DNA from: Escherichia phage SandraMuster_Bas78
Sequence record: PQ850625.1
Reading direction: 5' to 3' (one strand)
DNA length: 46,496 nucleotides
Below, in pieces: positions 1 through 42,023 of the stretch. How positions within the stretch are numbered: the stretch's first letter is position 1; every line of letters begins with the position of its first letter. A program made the translations under genes and the position numbers. The notes beneath the pieces were generated by a model. The model searched no databases. It was given only the letters and a program-made list of their open reading frames with translations, and was not told the origin of the DNA.

Positions 1-489
1 ATGTGCAGACGCGAAATGAAAATGCATGGTGCTACACAAAAAATCATACAAATGGTAGATGAAATGAAGCTAACAAAAAAACAACGCGAAGAGCTACGCA
101 TGAAGTTCGGTGGTCGCTGTGCTTATTGTGGGTGTGAGCTACCCGAGAAAGGTTGGCATGCAGACCATGTTGAACCAGTGCTACGTAAATCTGAGCAGTG
201 CATGAAGGCAGCGGCGAAAGGGATTTTCAAGCTGAAGGCAACCGGTGAGCTATATCGACCAGAAGCCGAGCGACTGGAAAACCTTTACCCTGCGTGCGCC
301 CCCTGCAATCTGATGAAAACTTCCTATTCCCTGGAAATGTTCAGGAAGCAGGTATCTCTTCAGGTTGCTCGTGGGCGCAAAAGCAGCATGAATTTCCGCA
401 CTGCAGAGCGTTTCGGTCTTATCGCCGTGGTGGAGAAACCAGTTGTTTTCTGGTTTGAGAAATACCAGGAAGAGAACGAAAAAAAATAA
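1..489 (+). CDS. HNH homing endonuclease (may be 5' truncated at window edge)
   Basis: Translation has CxxC...HxDH...N...CxxCN arrangement (CAYCGCE, HADHVEP, CAPCNLMK) typical of HNH nucleases; sits directly upstream of terminase genes. Confidence 0.65.
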   Translation: MCRREMKMHGATQKIIQMVDEMKLTKKQREELRMKFGGRCAYCGCELPEKGWHADHVEPVLRKSEQCMKAAAKGIFKLKATGELYRPEAERLENLYPACAPCNLMKTSYSLEMFRKQVSLQVARGRKSSMNFRTAERFGLIAVVEKPVVFWFEKYQEENEKK

Positions 490-11272: not shown

Positions 11273-11467
11273 ATGGCGCATGACGAGCTGTACGAAGAAT
11301 CGTTAATCCAACGACTGAATGAAGTTGAGCGTACTCGCGAATGGCTGGAGTGCGAATTGCGAGAAGTGCGTAACCGACTGCAACGCAAGCGCAGTCAGCA
11401 GAAGGACGTTATCGACTGGTCAGGCGACGTGCCTAAATTTAACAATCTTGGGGAGTGGTTGAAATGA
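11273..11467 (+). CDS. hypothetical protein (charged, helical)
   Basis: Track ORF. Confidence 0.45.
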   Translation: MAHDELYEESLIQRLNEVERTREWLECELREVRNRLQRKRSQQKDVIDWSGDVPKFNNLGEWLK

Positions 11468-11706
11468 CAGCGCCACATATGCCAATGATGAATGAGGAAG
11501 GTTTGCTGGAGTGTCCGTTTTGCGGTTCGCTTGAGGCTTGCCTGTTCGATGAATTGGTTTTATCTCATGTGTTTTGCTCGTCATGCGATGTGCGCACGGA
11601 TGATTACCTTGATGCTTCTATGGCGGTGAAGGCATGGAATACCAGGGGTGGGTTTGTTTATAGTAATGCTGACTATGAGGATATCAATAATGAAGTGCGA
11701 TCTTAA
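11455..11706 (+). CDS. small zinc-finger protein, possibly Lar-like restriction alleviation family
   Basis: CPFCG...C...CSSC cysteine arrangement in an 83 aa protein, as in the Lar-type small Zn-binding proteins I recall. Confidence 0.35.
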   Translation: MVEMTAPHMPMMNEEGLLECPFCGSLEACLFDELVLSHVFCSSCDVRTDDYLDASMAVKAWNTRGGFVYSNADYEDINNEVRS

Positions 11707-12205
11707 TCATGAGATTGTTTTGTCGTTAATTGATTACAATCCAGAGTCTGGGCAATTCACCAGAAAGAATGGGAAACAATGCGGCACAAAAACAACGAAG
11801 GGTTATATCCATGTGCGACTGCTTGGTAAAAAGCGCCTTGCGCACCGCCTGGCTTGGTTTTATGTTTACGGCGAATGGCCAGAACATGAGATTGATCATA
11901 TTAATGGAGTAAAAGATGACAACAGGATATGCAATCTAAGGAAGGCAACAAGACAACAAAATGAATGGAATAAGCCGCAACCAGGCACCAATACATCTGG
12001 CGTCAAGGGCGTGTGGTTTGCGTCAAACAGAGGGAAATGGCGTGCTGATTGCATGAGAAAAACACTTGGTTACTTTAACACGAAAAAAGATGCTATTAGC
12101 GCATTAATTAAATACAGGAGCGAAAACCAAGGCGAGTTCAAAAATCACGGACACCTGTACACTGCAGAAGACTTCAATCAGGCAGCCGAGGAGCGTGATT
12201 TATGA
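11693..12205 (+). CDS. HNH endonuclease with AP2-type DNA-binding domain
   Basis: HRLAWFYVYGEWPEHEIDHINGVKDDNRICNLR (HNH) followed by SGVKGVWF...KWRA...LGYF (AP2-like); paralogous to gene at 37197..37823. Confidence 0.7.
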   Translation, partial: KCDLNHEIVLSLIDYNPESGQFTRKNGKQCGTKTTKGYIHVRLLGKKRLAHRLAWFYVYGEWPEHEIDHINGVKDDNRICNLRKATRQQNEWNKPQPGTNTSGVKGVWFASNRGKWRADCMRKTLGYFNTKKDAISALIKYRSENQGEFKNHGHLYTAEDFNQAAEERDL

Positions 12206-36255: not shown

Positions 36256-37200
36256 TTATAAATTAAACTGTTTTTTGAACCATTCAGGCGTTTCCATTTC
36301 TATGACAGGATTACCCATTGAATAACCGGGCCACGAATTGGCTTTTTTGCACGCCTTGTAAATTTCCATAGCGCCATGCAACTGAATTCGACCGATGCGT
36401 AATTGCTCTTCAGTCAAGCGAATTAACGCAGGAATAAATGGTGCTTTCTTTTCCTGAACGAGAAGATTAACAGAGCGTGGCGCATGACCATATGCCGCAA
36501 CAAACATGTCGTGCTGCATCGCCATTTTCATAAAGTACCCAAGTCTCGCAGCATGACGGAAAAACTCTTCTGGCTTGGCGCTCACCGCTGTTTTGTAGTC
36601 GATGATGTCGCCACCTTTGGTAAGGCAGTCAAAGCGAACTTTTGCCTTCTCTCCGTTAAGTTCACCTAGAATTGACACTTCAGCATAAGCACCAGCGAGA
36701 AGACTGCTGTAATAGCTGTTTGCGTGGATTACAGCACGCATTTGCTGAATAGCGTCATAATCACCACCTTCCAGCATTTGCTTTCCTACAGCAGCTTTTT
36801 CAGCCTCTTCACGGATGACATCGTAAATTTTCACTGGCTCGCCAGTCGCCTGGATGATTTTGATCACCTCAGCTTTCGACTTTCCTGAAAGTCCTTTGAT
36901 GCCTCGTTCTTTTGCCCATGAGTTCATATCACTTACAGTAACAAGCAGGTCATCACCAAAATCTTCTTTGGTTGGCATTCGTGCATATTCAGCATCAAAA
37001 CGCTCTGGTTCAAGCAACGCAGTATGGCTACCTGTACCGAATATAAGAGCTTTTGATTGCTCATCCTCTTCGTCTTTGTATCGCCATGCTGCTGGGCATC
37101 TGTCAAGTATATTCCATAATCCAGAACCATTAATGTGCTCTGTGTCAGCATGATAATCCTGATTGCTTAATTCATTGTTGAAATAAACTCTCATCATCAC
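36256..37200 (-). CDS. PD-(D/E)XK family exonuclease (RecB/Cas4/YqaJ-like)
   Basis: C-terminal GGDIIDYKT (D...D/ExK core) and recombination-module context. Confidence 0.55.
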   Translation of the reverse strand: MMMRVYFNNELSNQDYHADTEHINGSGLWNILDRCPAAWRYKDEEDEQSKALIFGTGSHTALLEPERFDAEYARMPTKEDFGDDLLVTVSDMNSWAKERGIKGLSGKSKAEVIKIIQATGEPVKIYDVIREEAEKAAVGKQMLEGGDYDAIQQMRAVIHANSYYSSLLAGAYAEVSILGELNGEKAKVRFDCLTKGGDIIDYKTAVSAKPEEFFRHAARLGYFMKMAMQHDMFVAAYGHAPRSVNLLVQEKKAPFIPALIRLTEEQLRIGRIQLHGAMEIYKACKKANSWPGYSMGNPVIEMETPEWFKKQFNL

Positions 37201-37823
37201 TCTCCGTGGTTACAGAATTCTTTATGCATCTTTTCTCTGAATTTCATCACAGACAACCTCGCTCTCTCAATATCATTGAATAACCCAAGATGGTATCTTT
37301 TCCCGTTAACATCACAGTAAGCCTGCCACTTTTTAACCTGTTTTTGCCAATATACACCTTTAACTCCTGATGTGTTATTTTTTGGTTTTTTAGCGTTATA
37401 CTGGTTCTGCATATTTGTTGCGATTCTTAAGTTGCAAATCCTGTTATCGTCACGCACGCAGTTAATGTGATCAATTTGACCTTCAGGCCAGAAACCATAA
37501 TAAATCAACCATGCCAAGCGATGCGCGTAGTATCTTTTATTATTTATGCTTATCTCTATGTATCCGTTATGTTTTTTCCTGCCAGCGACACTACCCTTTC
37601 TTATACCTCCACCCGTCTTATTTCTAATGAAAACCCCCGTTTCAGGGTTGTAATTTAAGCTATCCAAAACAACATCACGTGGTATTCTTTTTCTTCCTCC
37701 TATGGTGTTTGACTCTGCACTTCCCTGAGCAAAATCTTGCTTTTGCAGTTCCGATAAACTCATTTCCACAAACCTCGCACTTCTTAACGGTGATAGCCAT
37801 TTCTTATCCTCTATTGTAATCAT
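37197..37823 (-). CDS. HNH endonuclease with AP2 domain
   Basis: HRLAWLIYYGFWPEGQIDHINCVRDDNRICNLR and SGVKGVYW...KWQA; paralog of 11693..12205; 5' end lies in 131 bp repeat shared with gene at 40224..40997. Confidence 0.7.
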   Translation of the reverse strand: MITIEDKKWLSPLRSARFVEMSLSELQKQDFAQGSAESNTIGGRKRIPRDVVLDSLNYNPETGVFIRNKTGGGIRKGSVAGRKKHNGYIEISINNKRYYAHRLAWLIYYGFWPEGQIDHINCVRDDNRICNLRIATNMQNQYNAKKPKNNTSGVKGVYWQKQVKKWQAYCDVNGKRYHLGLFNDIERARLSVMKFREKMHKEFCNHGE

Positions 37824-37868
37824 TTACCGTTACATTGCAAGTAACTTTTATTTGTTACTAACGATACA

Positions 37869-38309
37869 TTAATCTACGTCATCCAGCAAGCCAAAATAGA
37901 AAAGTGTGGCTTTTTTTAGTTCATCAAGACCGTAAGCGATGGCTGCATAATGACCAAGCCTGCACATCTCTGTTAGAACTGCTGATTGATCCTTGCTCAC
38001 TCTGCTCTTACTTTTGTCACGGCGCTTTGCCTCAATCATTCCGCAGCAGTGGTTCGCACCCGGAGTCATTATTACGTTATCGCCTATTCCAGGCTTAACC
38101 CCCATCTTCTGGCGCTTCAGTACGAACTGGACGCGGCTGGATGTTCCTGTTTCATTCGGGACGTGAAACCATAGCACATCAGGGAAACAGTGTTGCATCC
38201 ATGTTCCATAACCCATCTGGTCAGTCTCCTCTTTTGGGCATTCGCCGCGATAACCGCTATCAAATACCCATATACCGCTATCAAGCTGCTTCACTTTGTT
38301 CTCCTGCAA
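37869..38309 (-). CDS. VRR-NUC-like nuclease
   Basis: GDNVIMTPG...GMIEAKRRDKSKSRVSKDQ consistent with a D...E.K...Q VRR-NUC core; immediately downstream of helicase, a common pairing. Confidence 0.5.
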   Translation of the reverse strand: MQENKVKQLDSGIWVFDSGYRGECPKEETDQMGYGTWMQHCFPDVLWFHVPNETGTSSRVQFVLKRQKMGVKPGIGDNVIMTPGANHCCGMIEAKRRDKSKSRVSKDQSAVLTEMCRLGHYAAIAYGLDELKKATLFYFGLLDDVD

Positions 38310-40215
38310 AATCTTTTCTATGGATTATGTCGCGACCTTTATCATTAATGCGATGAGTGATGCGTTTTGGCGCTTTAATCAATCCAGCATACATCATGAA
38401 CTGCTTAGCATTCTGGCATTTCAGGATTTTCCCCGCCATTGACTTATCATCAAGGTGAGGAAAAATAGCCTTTGCCTTGAACATGTTTTTCATGTGAGTC
38501 GCACCGCCATATGGGTAGAAAACTTCGTTAGCCCAGCCTTCTTTGCCATCACAACGATTAATCCAGTAGCGATACAAAATACCTTCTCCATCCTTTGTTA
38601 GCTGGACTTTGAAATCAATAACATCAGCCCACTCATTATCGGTATACGCACGCTCATTCAGCGCCGCATTCGGGTCGCGCAACACGTGATCGCAATGCCG
38701 GCAATAACGCGCGGTAGGGTCATTTTTAGTCCCGCAGCCATCATCAAAAATACGGATTCCGTGCTTATCAAAACCGCAACGGATGTAACTGAAAAACTCT
38801 TCGCAACGACCATCTGGAGATAGTGGGTCTTTTCCTATGCAACGGCGCGCATATGGGCTGTTCATTGTTCCGCACTTAGGACACGGAACCTGTTCACCAC
38901 TGCGTTTTGAACGTTGTGCTTCAGCCTCTTCCAGAATCGGGTCTTCATACAGTTGACCAAGCTCAAACATCGTTCCTGAGAAATCAAGGACCAGATGGTC
39001 TTCTTTATGATACCCGGCGTCAATTTGCTCTTTCTTCAGCAGGCGCATACCGCGACCAAGCAACTGAACAAGAAGGGTGAGTGACATTATTTTTCGTAAT
39101 ATCACGCTTGTATCCCAAAGCGGGATATTGACGCCAGTCGTCAAACAACCAATCTGGAAAACATATTTAATCTTGCCAGTGTATGCGTCTTTTAACGCCT
39201 TGCGTCTGGCTTTCTGTCCCATATCCTCGGTGACGATAGCGTAACTTCCTTCGGGTAAATATTTAGATGCCTCCTGACAGTGTTTTTTACCTGCGCATGT
39301 AATTAGTACGCCATTTCTGTTTTTTGTCAGCTCCATAACCTTGAGCATGATTTTCTGCGTGAGTGTCCCTTGCTCAAGTATTTCTTTCTGCATCTGCTTG
39401 AGTTGCTCGGCAGTAAAGTCTTGTGTACCGTCAACATCTGAACCATGGAAGTTATGCAGGTCATATTTCAAATCATCAACATCATGAAGACCAAAGATTG
39501 TTGGCACAACAAAACCGCGATCTACCATGTACTTTGTATCAATGTTTATTATTTCATTTTTCCAGTACGCACCTTTCATTGATTCAGTACCACGGAATGG
39601 GCTGCCGGTGAATCCAATTGTTATCATTTCATGCCCATATCTTGCCTTGCAGCGCCTATTAAGTTCAGTAAGTATTGCGCCATATTGTGTTGTTGGATTA
39701 TCACTAATAATATCCTGCCATGGAGCTTGATGGGACTCATCGATCAGGCAAAATCTTGGGGTAAAATCACTCAATCCACCTTTCTTAACGTCACCGTTTG
39801 ATTCATCTTTTTTATCAAAAAGTGCGTTCGCGATTGTTCCTTCAGTACCGCATATAATAGGGTATGCTGTACTTTTCCTGCCAAGAGATGCGCTATAAAG
39901 AGAATTTTTTACACCGCACTCCCACATCATCTCAGCATTCTGCTCAGCTATCTCCCCCTGTCTTGAAATTACAAGCCCATCCCATCCCATATCCTGAAAT
40001 CTACTGCAAAGCATTGAAATCATCACTGTCTTTCCTGATGAAACCGACGCTGTAACATAGCTTGGCTCAGGTTTCTTTCCAAAATTACGAATAACCTCAG
40101 CGCACTTTGCGTAAACAAGCCATTGGTAATCATATGGCTCTATGGAGCCTAGTTTTATTGATTTCTTTAAGTTACCTATATCAATTTCTGAAATCATCTT
40201 GTCTATTTTGTGCAT
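38281..40215 (-). CDS. DExH-box superfamily 2 DNA helicase with C-terminal zinc ribbons
   Basis: Motif I SSGKT, motif II CLIDESH, and C-terminal CPKCG...CRHCD cysteine pairs. Confidence 0.85.
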   Translation of the reverse strand: MHKIDKMISEIDIGNLKKSIKLGSIEPYDYQWLVYAKCAEVIRNFGKKPEPSYVTASVSSGKTVMISMLCSRFQDMGWDGLVISRQGEIAEQNAEMMWECGVKNSLYSASLGRKSTAYPIICGTEGTIANALFDKKDESNGDVKKGGLSDFTPRFCLIDESHQAPWQDIISDNPTTQYGAILTELNRRCKARYGHEMITIGFTGSPFRGTESMKGAYWKNEIINIDTKYMVDRGFVVPTIFGLHDVDDLKYDLHNFHGSDVDGTQDFTAEQLKQMQKEILEQGTLTQKIMLKVMELTKNRNGVLITCAGKKHCQEASKYLPEGSYAIVTEDMGQKARRKALKDAYTGKIKYVFQIGCLTTGVNIPLWDTSVILRKIMSLTLLVQLLGRGMRLLKKEQIDAGYHKEDHLVLDFSGTMFELGQLYEDPILEEAEAQRSKRSGEQVPCPKCGTMNSPYARRCIGKDPLSPDGRCEEFFSYIRCGFDKHGIRIFDDGCGTKNDPTARYCRHCDHVLRDPNAALNERAYTDNEWADVIDFKVQLTKDGEGILYRYWINRCDGKEGWANEVFYPYGGATHMKNMFKAKAIFPHLDDKSMAGKILKCQNAKQFMMYAGLIKAPKRITHRINDKGRDIIHRKDFAGEQSEAA

Positions 40216-40223
40216 TTCATCAC

Positions 40224-40997
40224 CTATGGCATGTCAGGCCAATAAGAGTTGCTTTTAGATCTGTTTTCACTTGGTGCAAGTAATTGTAAGTTATGCCAGC
40301 AGTGAAGGCCGCAAACCAATTTACTATTTATTGGCACTATGTGATCAACTTGCATACCAAGAACGCCAGCCATCTCATAAACCTTTTCAATTAAAACCCT
40401 TTCATGTTCAAACCATGATGGTATCGCCCGTCTTTTAAGATACTTATATTTACGCTGATGATATCTAACAACACCATTGTTTTTCTGTCTCCACTGTTTT
40501 GACTTCTCGTTGTGCTTTTCCTTGTTTTCATTGTAATACTTCTTTGATTTTGCGTTTATCTTGTTCTTATTTGCTGCGTAATTACCTTTCTTGAACTCTG
40601 ATTGGCACTTCTTACATTCAGGCCTAAGACCATCAAGTGATGATTTGTTTTTATTGAAGTTTTCTTCATTTGCATCAAGAACTGAGTTGCATTTAGAGCA
40701 TACTTTCCTTCCATCAACAAGATATCTCAGCCTTTTACCTTTGTTTCCATCGCATGATTTACAATGAGATTTTAAACCAAGCCTCATCTTCTTATCTGAG
40801 TAGAAGTAATCACTTGTTGCAGGAAGCATTAAATTGCATCTTGAGCATTTCTTTTTTGTCCCTGTGCTTGCGCAACCTGCACTTTCCTGAGCAACATTTT
40901 GCTTTTGCAGTTCCGATAAACTCATTTCCGCAAACCTCGCACTTCTTAACGGTGATAGCCATTTCTTGTCCTCTATTGTAACGATTAATTGTTTCAT
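40224..40997 (-). CDS. HNH endonuclease with N-terminal zinc-ribbon repeats
   Basis: C-terminal QVDHIVPI...CGLHCWHNLQLLAPSEN (HNH) and multiple CxxC pairs upstream; N-terminus shares repeat with 37197..37823. Confidence 0.65.
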   Translation of the reverse strand: MKQLIVTIEDKKWLSPLRSARFAEMSLSELQKQNVAQESAGCASTGTKKKCSRCNLMLPATSDYFYSDKKMRLGLKSHCKSCDGNKGKRLRYLVDGRKVCSKCNSVLDANEENFNKNKSSLDGLRPECKKCQSEFKKGNYAANKNKINAKSKKYYNENKEKHNEKSKQWRQKNNGVVRYHQRKYKYLKRRAIPSWFEHERVLIEKVYEMAGVLGMQVDHIVPINSKLVCGLHCWHNLQLLAPSENRSKSNSYWPDMP

Positions 40998-41069
40998 TGC
41001 AAGTAACGATTGATTGTTTCATGTGAGTAAATTACAATGATTCTACATCATCGTCAACAGGAAGATTTT

Positions 41070-42023
41070 ATGAGATACGACTGGAAAGATATTGAGCCAA
41101 AAATGCTTGGCAATTGGCAAGCTGCCATCATGTCTATCGTCAATGTGGATAGCAGAGTTTTCAATGGCAAGCACCAGCCATGCCCTCATTGCATGGGGGT
41201 TGACCGGTTCCGTTGGGATAATCACTTCGAAACAAAAGGCGATGGCGGCGCAATCTGCAATCAGTGCGGTTCCGGCAGCGGCATGAATTGGCTGATGAAA
41301 CTCTCCGGAATGAGCTTTCCTGAAGCGCTGGAGGCACTTGGTGGATTCCTGAATATGCACCCGCGTGAAAAGCTGGAGGCAATCAGGAAAGAGCTACCGA
41401 AGATAAATCACAGCGATGACTTCATCACCGAGCAGGAAGTCGCAGCAATCATGGCTAAAACGACTCGTGTCGCGATGAATGAGTGGACTTTGATAAATGG
41501 TATTGGTTGCGACGTTAACGTCACCAGAGGCAAATCTGGAGAACTTATTGCGGTTGAGATGATGCGAGCTGACACAATGAAACTGTGCAACGTGGCATTC
41601 ATTGGCATGGATGGTGATTCAATCAGAACGTTTTTCCGCGCAGGATACAACAAGGACTCAGCCATCAACGGCAAACTCACGCGCGGCGCGATAAGCCCAA
41701 TCGGAGAAGACAACGGGAAGTTCATTTACCTGGTATCTGATTATGCCGATGCGTGGAAGTGCCATTACTTCACTGGCGCGCATGTCTGGTGCTGCTGGTC
41801 GCCGGAAAACATGTGGGAAGTGGTGCGCTCTGTTAGCAATGAGATGAAGTCACGGTTACGCTGCATAGTTAATTATAAATTTGACGAACTTTGCGCTGCG
41901 GAAAACGCAGGGATTCCGGTGATGCTTCCTGATGATGCCGACACTATCAGGATGGCAAAGAGAATCAGGAGAAAGATTTATGACGCTGGCGAGTTGATAG
42001 AGAAAATGTCAGTTAGAAGATAA
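41070..42023 (+). CDS. putative DNA primase (zinc-ribbon plus Toprim-like region)
   Basis: ATG at 41070 with CAGGAAG RBS inside track ORF 41037..42023; CPHCMGVDRFRWD...CNQCGSGSGM resembles the zinc-binding domain of P4/T7-type primases. Confidence 0.5.
   Translation: MRYDWKDIEPKMLGNWQAAIMSIVNVDSRVFNGKHQPCPHCMGVDRFRWDNHFETKGDGGAICNQCGSGSGMNWLMKLSGMSFPEALEALGGFLNMHPREKLEAIRKELPKINHSDDFITEQEVAAIMAKTTRVAMNEWTLINGIGCDVNVTRGKSGELIAVEMMRADTMKLCNVAFIGMDGDSIRTFFRAGYNKDSAINGKLTRGAISPIGEDNGKFIYLVSDYADAWKCHYFTGAHVWCCWSPENMWEVVRSVSNEMKSRLRCIVNYKFDELCAAENAGIPVMLPDDADTIRMAKRIRRKIYDAGELIEKMSVRR

Follow-up and report, generated by a model that had tools for sequence, protein, structure and literature searches.

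A 142-bp repeat with a small zinc-ribbon gene as the probable control head of two mobile HNH nuclease cassettes in Escherichia phage SandraMuster_Bas78

A stretch of 46,496 nucleotides (nt) from Escherichia phage SandraMuster_Bas78 (sequence record PQ850625.1), referred to here in its full length as the window, carries two HNH endonuclease genes on its minus strand, HNH-A and HNH-B, which share a nearly identical segment of DNA at their 5′ ends. What does this repeated segment encode, and what might it do for the genes that it precedes? The original prediction, made from the letters of the sequence alone, took the repeat for a 5′ module common to both nuclease genes, consisting of a leader and a shared N-terminus and pointing to recent duplication or domain shuffling. 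The present analysis leads to a different answer: the DNA common to both genes most likely codes for a small zinc-ribbon protein in a second frame, here called Z, rather than for a conserved nuclease N-terminus, and the repeat as a whole probably serves two mobile nuclease cassettes, A and B, as a common control head. Free-standing nuclease cassettes are known; what is new here is that they share a control head containing a small gene that had been overlooked. Literature searches returned no account of this head.

Coding content of the repeat

The window represents a small siphovirus of the Skatevirus cluster (named as in PMC11990801), with Bas80 (98.5%), Bas77, the Salmonella phages Vi II-E1, LPSTLL and Skate, and Klebsiella phages as relatives. 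A repeat search of the window returned a single direct-repeat family, whose two members (Table 1) extend over 142 nt and are 89% identical. When copy A was compared with the whole window using blastn, copy B was the sole match (131 nt, 91.6% identity, E=6e-46); the match spans 37715-37845 and 40877-41007, exactly the 131 bp originally proposed, and that repeat is therefore real. In ungapped register, the copies are 90-100% identical from -20 to +70 relative to the ATG of Z, fully identical from 0 to +50 with synonymous sites included, and down to background (30-50%) beyond about -60 and +90. A six-frame motif scan combined with blastn-short gave no further copy in the window and no Z at its other two HNH genes. 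Both long minus-strand open reading frames (ORFs) assigned to the nucleases exist (37197-37823, 208 aa; 40224-40997, 257 aa) and bracket a VRR-NUC-like ORF and a helicase gene, and a zinc-ribbon peptide is likewise encoded in the second frame of both copies, as had been noticed.

For comparison across phages, the module was sampled in 54 phage records (one copy per record) and 29 IMG/VR contigs, and Z is intact in every one of them. Its conservation extends over more than 40 phage loci, with Vibrio phages and metagenomic lineages among them. Its sequence follows the pattern MAIT.KKCE.CG..F.GTAKA..CS..CR and continues into a basic tail, for a total of 41-50 codons, with a Shine-Dalgarno (SD) sequence, AGAGG, 7 nt before the ATG. 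Enterobacterial, Vibrio and metagenomic versions are 56-72% identical at the DNA level, yet the Z peptide, its four Cys, the ATG and the SD are retained. In Vibrio phages, for instance, a copy at 72% DNA identity stands ahead of a different nuclease type (phrog_953) and keeps Z (MAITNKKCEICGELFYGTAKAKVCSNKCRVKKHRQKK...) but not the other frame. Variable columns at the first, second and third positions of Z codons number 12/13/28 among 29 unique modules and 1/0/10 among three Vibrio phage copies. Pairwise ratios of nonsynonymous to synonymous change (pN/pS) are 0.16-0.47 for Z; in the frame of the proposed HNH N-terminus they are 0.95-4.7, and only 1-1.5 synonymous differences are found there as against 5-10 for Z. 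The substitutions at third positions of Z, the low pN/pS of Z and stop codons in the other frame together indicate that the repeat codes for Z. The frame under purifying selection is thus the second one.

The reading of the repeat as an N-terminal module shared by both HNH proteins, derived by recent duplication or domain shuffling within the genome, is highly improbable in light of these comparisons. It would account for the fact that both long ORFs are open in the window, with the N-termini MITIEDKK... and MKQLIVTIEDKK..., and some depositors have annotated such long forms (Bas77, 627 nt; Bas80, 774 nt). However, the IEDKKWLSPLRSARF frame shows no purifying selection, and the extension upstream of MSLSELQ (IEDKKWLSPL) contains stop codons in four relatives (L028, L009, L005 and L039), created by substitutions that leave the Z peptide unchanged. 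The long-form start codons also have other assignments: ATG 37823 lies between the -35 and -10 boxes, inside the spacer of the promoter-like site described below, and since cassette B was inserted after the helicase ATG, position 40997 is the former start of the helicase gene. Relatives of the HNH_3/AP2 type have no such N-terminal extension: they are typically about 160 aa in length and start some 10 residues ahead of YNPETG. Each copy of the repeat is closer to a copy in another phage (Bas77 or Bas80) than to its partner in the window. The apparent shared N-terminus is a by-product of the same DNA read in another frame.

Within Z, residues C8, C11, C24 and C28 are invariant and comprise a CxxC knuckle and a C...C pair at a helix N-terminus. 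In the AlphaFold model (predicted local distance difference test score, 88.6), strands at residues 4-7 and 14-17 and a helix at 26-40 are arranged with the Cys placed as in a treble clef, and Z is predicted to be a treble-clef zinc ribbon followed by a basic helix. At the sequence level, Z matches zinc-ribbon segments of HNH endonuclease PHROGs (1271 and 15471) with E about 1e-5. A profile of Z retrieves 622 related clusters at E<=1e-3, which include free-standing proteins of 40-60 aa and in-frame arrays within longer proteins; the array proteins often match the NinG N-terminus (30/117), DUF2116 or HNH, and some have YacG Pfam matches. Searches for relatives of solved structure by sequence returned none for HNH-A or HNH-B and only insignificant ones for Z (best PDB profile, E=0.013). 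Two kinds of fusion were also observed: proteins P0071 and P0143 carry a single, very Z-like N-terminal ribbon in frame with a T5orf172/GIY-YIG-type domain, and loci L035 (1746-2723) and L036 (897-1664) encode arrays of 4-6 Z-like ribbons before an HNH domain resembling the C-terminus of HNH-B.

Conservation of this kind might also be expected if the segment acted only as DNA, as a recombination hotspot, a homing-site mimic or a promoter, with the Z ORF an unexpressed by-product. We give this very little credence. The heads are indeed highly identical even at synonymous sites, exchange of nuclease bodies has its breakpoints at the head, and only 4 Z proteins of the head family are on record among 5.8 billion, one of them named, as "hypothetical protein." Gene callers, though, drop short ORFs that overlap a longer one, which would explain why Z is almost missing from databases. 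Retention of the peptide through third-position changes while the DNA diverges, the large number of related clusters with many free-standing members, and the confidently predicted fold all argue against a role confined to DNA. We infer from sequence that Z is expressed as a protein.

In every lineage, the nuclease frame is +1 relative to Z and open throughout the overlap, which measures 89 nt for HNH-A and 116 nt for HNH-B. HNH-A matches Pfam HNH_3 (58.1 bits; cut-off, 24.8), AP2 at a score below the cut-off (26.1 versus 33.3 bits) and PHROG 99 (E=8.9e-72). HNH-B has no Pfam match; it matches PHROG 1035/99 at E=4.7e-21/1.5e-10, and a DH...N...N motif is visible (VDHIVP...NLQLLAPSENRSKSN). For Skatevirus heads, the sole consistent nuclease start is an ATG located 37 nt inside Z (MSLSELQ) and preceded by GAGG at a distance of 9 nt, and the Vibrio and L039 versions have an internal ATG at +46, with GGAG 9 nt upstream. 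Exceptions are L029/L030, where the codon is GTG, and L012, where it is ATA. The MSLSELQ start is already used by gene callers and by many depositors. Taken together, these observations make an internal ATG, +1 relative to Z, the most likely start of the nuclease ORFs; many records would then carry mis-annotated start codons for these HNH genes. The 23-30 residues of nuclease leader that fall within the Z overlap are unconstrained.

The constant +1 frame could alternatively mean that Z and the nuclease are joined, either by programmed +1 frameshifting or by slippage on a run of A residues that encodes lysine at the end of the Z core, which would make Z the N-terminal DNA-binding domain of the enzyme. 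We consider this improbable; likewise unlikely is its corollary, that one start codon yields both a free Z repressor and a Z-tethered nuclease, with the slippage rate setting the nuclease dose. All lineages have the downstream ORF at +1 of Z, whether the overlap is 8, 14, 17, 35/41, 89 or 116 nt, and runs of 5-6 A occur at the transition between selection on Z and selection on the nuclease. In L048 and L053, the A-run is precisely where the +1 frame becomes open, the nuclease-less L040 lacks an A-run, and AGGAGG lies 3 nt upstream of AAAAA in copy A only. In-frame fusions of ribbon and nuclease exist elsewhere (P0071, P0143, L035, L036 and PHROG 1271), and frameshifting would suit both the unconstrained leader and the missing internal ATG of L012. 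However, the +1 frame has its own start and SD-like sequence in each lineage (e.g., GAGAGG-N5-TTG in L053 and AAGGAA-N8-ATG in L048), and a Lys-rich tail would contain A-runs in any case. Surveys of overlapping genes, moreover, show 3n+2 to be the commoner phase among longer overlaps. No stimulatory RNA structure (z-scores of about 0.3) and no slow, hungry or stop codon was found at the candidate sites. Z is in frame in 0/567 HNH_3/AP2 relatives, which had been retrieved using a hypothetical Z-HNH_3 fusion as the query, and the in-frame fusions that do exist all involve nucleases of other types. Distant lineages have a NinB/Orf or Ant-like gene as the +1 ORF, for which a fusion to Z makes little sense. 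If true, frameshifting would give recoding a new role among mobile nuclease genes and would explain the constant +1 frame as well as the unconstrained leader.

Promoter-like boxes, palindromes and a candidate autorepressor

Sigma-70-like hexamers with a spacing of 16-17 nt precede Z in all 11 lineages tabulated. Within the window region, promoter-like matches are not above chance (8 found versus 10.6 expected), so the promoter assignment rests on conservation across lineages; the head promoter is presumably active. In two Vibrio phage loci (L031 and L032), a terminator hairpin stands just upstream of the head.

An 18-bp inverted repeat, G(T/A)AAC-N8-GTTAC (referred to here as O1), lies in the promoter spacer and overlaps the -10 box in every lineage examined. 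Its arms are conserved and its central 8 nt vary, and in L053 the outer pair has changed symmetrically. Skatevirus heads have a second palindrome, O2, 25 bp upstream of O1 and abutting the -35 box. Allowing <=1 mismatch, the 46.5-kb window contains 4 sites versus 0.71 expected (0/100 shuffles reach 4), all of them in the two copies of the repeat. A perfect palindrome is present in 17/54 loci, as a single site per locus that invariably precedes the Z ATG by 23-58 nt.

The head is not confined to one kind of nuclease. Z with its strong SD stands ahead of at least seven bodies (the A, B, ViII-E1, swi2, SB28, L039 and Vibrio phrog_953 types), and the head family occurs in Skatevirus-type coliphages, in Salmonella, Klebsiella and Vibrio phages and in several metagenomic lineages. 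In two lineages, the two sites of the window recur in other phage groups: L053/54 has the order helicase, VRR-NUC, Z, HNH_3 and DUF3799, and L044/L051 the order primase, Z, HNH-B-like gene and helicase. The ORF overlapping the end of Z is NinB/Orf-like in L050 and Ant-like in L048, and in L040-L043 the promoter, palindrome and Z stand alone beside a gene for a TET-associated glycosyltransferase. Because Z persists with broken, absent or other cargo, the constant unit consists of promoter, palindrome and Z, and the cargo varies. Two of these loci have features of their own. In Bas81 (L009, 1557-2163), the HNH_3/AP2 gene is split into two ORFs and its HNH motif is deleted; Z is intact, and the region is unannotated. 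In L040 (2458-3850), from a metagenomic phage contig, genes for a PIF1-type helicase and the TET-associated glycosyltransferase flank the solo promoter-palindrome-Z unit; this phage may have hypermodified DNA.

On balance we favor a model in which the repeat is the conserved head of mobile cassettes, a promoter-operator-regulator unit with Z as an autorepressor that keeps expression of the cargo in check. The anatomy of the unit is seen directly in the sequences; autorepression is the probable function of Z. Z is the candidate binder for three reasons: it is the only protein always found with the palindrome, a small ribbon with a basic helix could plausibly bind DNA as a dimer, and the palindrome coincides in part with the core promoter. 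According to this model, a Z dimer would bind the palindromes and repress its own promoter, and ribosomes translating Z from its strong ribosome-binding site would run across the weaker internal start of the nuclease. Repression and Z translation would together keep a potentially harmful nuclease low, and the nearly identical heads would also act as a recombination platform for swapping nuclease bodies. Homing endonuclease genes must be expressed enough to spread and not so much as to harm their carrier, and the known controls come mostly from T4. If Z is a repressor, it would be a dedicated regulator that moves with selfish nucleases as well as with Ant-like, NinB-like and glycosyltransferase cargo, in a compact promoter-operator-repressor unit.

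Several observations weigh against this model. The pairing of Z with the palindrome is drawn from co-occurrence, and a host factor or another phage factor could be the binder. The palindrome motif was defined from the same sequences in which it was counted, making the enrichment in the window partly circular, while the O2 sites and the distant lineages are independent. The -10 box of Skatevirus heads ends only 12 nt before the Z ATG, compared with 17-19 nt elsewhere, so the mRNA would not include the conserved SD if transcription began at the canonical distance. In L012, the nuclease frame is open although the internal ATG is missing, and an out-of-frame overlap of 89-116 nt with an unconstrained leader is unusual. 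Finally, Z scores 19.9 bits against Pfam DUF2116, below the curated cut-off of 26.8, and Foldseek gave no significant structural match for Z (the best being YacG at E=0.42, with an FCS finger also listed; E >= 0.4).

Z may also be a real protein with a role other than repressing itself, such as a Com-like RNA regulator, an accessory or targeting subunit of the nuclease, or a YacG-like inhibitor of a host protein, with the palindromes bound by another factor. This is a possible but rather unlikely reading. A small Cys4 finger with a basic tail, encoded across the start of a gene for a potentially toxic DNA enzyme, resembles Com of phage Mu (PMC6483171). The best structural neighbors of Z are YacG and the FCS finger (template modeling score, 0.69-0.73; probability, 0.96), the Z-array proteins include YacG Pfam matches, and Z-like ribbons are modules of nucleases elsewhere. 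On the other hand, no conserved RNA hairpin was found around the nuclease start: RNAalifold on 10 diverse heads gave a weak 5+5 bp structure with one covarying pair at the Z and nuclease starts, and three single folds had z-scores of about 0.3. The only other constant companion of Z is a DNA palindrome upstream of the probable transcription start. Z is unchanged across bodies and sites and persists where there is no nuclease, which argues against a target-specific subunit. As for YacG, its C-terminal tail has a motif of the DLGxW type, which Z, by sequence reading, lacks.

Table 1. Positions of the repeat copies, candidate control sites, genes and cassettes in the window
Feature	Position	Strand	Description
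Repeat copy A	37715..37856	-	Head of cassette A: candidate operators, promoter-like boxes, SD, Z codons 1-28
Repeat copy B	40877..41018	-	Head of cassette B
Z-A	37675..37800	-	41-codon zinc-ribbon ORF (MAITVKKCEVCGNEFIGTAKARFCSGKCRVKHHRRKKKNTT); SD AGAGGA at 37807-37812
Z-B	40810..40962	-	50-codon zinc-ribbon ORF (MAITVKKCEVCGNEFIGTAKAKCCSGKCRLRKHRDKKEMLKMQFNASCNK); conserved ATG at 40962; SD AGAGGA at 40969-40974
Promoter-like site, cassette A	37813..37840	-	TTGCAA-N16-TACAAT
O1-A	37816-37833	-	GTAAC-ggtaaatg-ATTAC; in promoter spacer, overlaps -10 box
O2-A	37841..37858	-	Perfect palindrome GTAAC-aaataaaa-GTTAC, abuts -35 box
Promoter-like site, cassette B	40975..41002	-	TTGCAA-N16-TACAAT
O1-B	40978-40995	-	GAAAC-aattaatc-GTTAC; in promoter spacer
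O2-B	41003..41020	-	GAAAC-aatcaatc-GTTAC; also overlaps -35 of divergent promoter-like site for primase
HNH-A	37197..37763	-	HNH_3 + AP2-like; 188 aa from probable ATG 37763; longest ORF to 37823
HNH-B	40224..40925	-	CxxC ribbons + C-terminal HNH motif; 233 aa from probable ATG 40925; longest ORF to 40997
Cassette A	37195..37850	-	Insertion relative to empty sites of KE08 and Bas80; 5′ boundary uncertain by about +/-10 nt
Cassette B	40214..40993	-	780-nt insertion directly after ancestral helicase start codon
Resident genes between cassettes	37869..40215	-	VRR-NUC-like ORF 37869-38309 and DExH helicase 38281-40215

Insertion and exchange of the cassettes

The two HNH genes are polymorphic for presence among close relatives: neither is found in KE08, A is missing from Bas80 and B from Bas77. 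Comparison with these phages, which had been suggested as a check, identifies both genes as insertions and allowed their boundaries to be mapped. Cassette A takes the place of about 33 nt between the exoVIII gene and the VRR-NUC-like gene and alters the start of exoVIII, which reads MMMRVYF instead of MKVYF. For cassette B, the empty site of KE08 reads ...gttagttgctATGa|cgcataaaatagac, and the window reads ...gttacttgcaATGa[cassette]gcacaaaatagac. The 3′ end of cassette B brings the helicase gene a new SD (AGGTGA) and ATG, and the protein begins MHKID instead of MTHKID. Initiation of both exoVIII and helicase now depends on cassette sequence, which would favor retention of the cassettes. The first codons and ribosome-binding sites altered in this way lie at 37190-37200 and 40205-40225, in the resident genes downstream of each insertion.

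The empty site B of KE08 (L002, 3843-3880) keeps an O2-like sequence, GAAAC-N10-GTTAG, and the ATG(A) that precedes the cassette elsewhere. This sequence could have been left behind when a cassette was lost, or it could be native control DNA with a resemblance to the cassette's 5′ end. A common target motif upstream of both cassettes, GATGTAGAWT, was considered and dropped as chance: the best local alignment between the empty sites of KE08 was equalled or beaten in 77/1000 shuffles and that between the window flanks in 84/1000. In the window, the underlying similarity is GATGA(T/C)GTAGA(A/T)T, about 50-60 nt upstream of Z at both sites (37857-37900 and 41019-41060), where one copy is the end of the VRR-NUC-like gene and the other the complement of the primase start.

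How, then, did one phage come to carry two heads? Copy A is 100% identical to the copy in Bas77, and from -60 to +100 copy B is 99.4% identical to that in Bas80, whereas A and B are 83% identical to each other over the same interval and 89% over the 142-nt core, with values of 83-89% in every genome compared. Among roughly 80 other genomes with the module, none has a second copy. The suggested recent duplication is contradicted by these values. Since each copy is nearly identical to one in a different phage and A and B are equally diverged everywhere, the window is instead a mosaic of two old cassette lineages.

Shuffling, the other process invoked, finds support at the level of the family. 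Heads at site B are 92-98% identical, and the next 300 nt are unrelated (61-63%, which is alignment background), so that nuclease bodies have been exchanged behind a constant head. The head is likely the site at which such exchange between phages takes place. Recombination between the two repeat copies would remove the VRR-NUC-like gene, the helicase gene and HNH-B. Shuffling is also indicated by Vi II-E1 (L003, 3852-4856) and, with it, LPSTLL (L004, 4051-5055), whose 334-aa nuclease consists of an HNH_3-like domain followed by the whole HNH-B body. This protein has two HNH-type modules, and HNH-B of the window looks like the same protein without the first.

Related systems and neighboring genes

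The closest parallels are the free-standing homing genes of T4-like phages. The mob and seg genes, of the HNH and GIY-YIG types, often overlap an upstream ORF (segC by 20 bp, mobA by 23 bp and mobC by 24 bp); these overlaps have been read as limiting nuclease translation, and the insertions bring signals for expression of the host gene that lies downstream (PMC2988022). Cassettes A and B resemble them in lying between conserved genes, in being absent from close relatives, in overlapping an upstream ORF and in having 3′ ends that give exoVIII and helicase a new SD and ATG. They differ in that the upstream ORF, Z, travels with the nuclease, the promoter and the palindromes, is common to unrelated bodies and overlaps by 89-116 nt. 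Homing of the HNH-A and HNH-B cassettes themselves is putative. For I-TevI, an operator overlapping the promoter of its own gene limits expression, and the nuclease itself binds this operator, which resembles its homing site (PMC2988022). The heads similarly have an operator-like site overlapping the promoter of a nuclease gene, but the candidate binder is a separate zinc ribbon of 41-50 aa and the site is a symmetric palindrome common to different nucleases.

Zinc ribbons are associated with HNH nucleases in other ways. In the zinc-ribbon HNH endonucleases and at the N-terminus of lambda NinG, the ribbon lies within the nuclease polypeptide (PMC3592412). Here, too, a CxxC...C(S)xxC ribbon adjoins an HNH nuclease, but Z is a separate ORF in another frame. 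Com of Mu, a CCCC finger of 62 aa, is an activator of mom translation and binds a hairpin in mRNA (PMC6483171). In both systems, a small Cys4 zinc-finger gene lies directly upstream of a tightly controlled gene for an enzyme acting on DNA. The com and mom genes overlap. Unlike com/mom, the heads yielded no conserved hairpin, and the conserved partner of Z is a DNA palindrome in the promoter.

Two further comparisons concern the architecture of the cassettes. The morons of HK97 and lambda are autonomous promoter-gene units inserted between resident genes. The cassettes are likewise self-contained units with their own promoter-like site, placed between conserved genes and variable in cargo, with an upstream terminator in L031 and L032; they differ from morons in having a dedicated small regulator gene and operator-like palindromes and in that the cargo nuclease starts inside the regulator gene. 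Genes embedded out of frame in others are also familiar from phages, as with phiX174 E within D and MS2 L overlapping the coat gene. As in those cases, a second gene starts inside another, in the +1 frame. In contrast to them, constraint is found in one frame only, that of Z, and the part of the nuclease in the overlap is an unconstrained leader.

In the region surrounding the cassettes, the minus strand carries, in order of position, the exoVIII-like gene (36256-37200), HNH-A, the VRR-NUC-like gene, the helicase gene and HNH-B. Elsewhere in the window, an 83-aa Lar-like zinc-ribbon ORF (11455-11706, plus strand) overlaps the start of the third HNH_3 gene (11693-12205, plus strand) by 14 nt. 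This is a second pairing of a small zinc ribbon with an HNH gene; its sequence is unrelated to Z, and it has no palindrome. The remaining HNH gene (1-489, plus strand; Pfam HNH, phrog_2118) is directly upstream of genes for a probable small terminase (670-1113) and a large terminase (1185-2678). Beside the terminase genes, it looks like a packaging-type HNH rather than one of the four homing-type endonucleases proposed for this phage.

The primase gene (41037-42023) diverges from cassette B on the plus strand. A promoter-like TTGATT-N17-TACAAT on that strand (within 41010-41070) overlaps both O2-B and the first ATG of the primase ORF, at 41037, and the true primase start is probably ATG 41070 (MRYDWK, with SD AGGAAG). 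If so, a protein bound to O2-B could also affect transcription of the primase gene.

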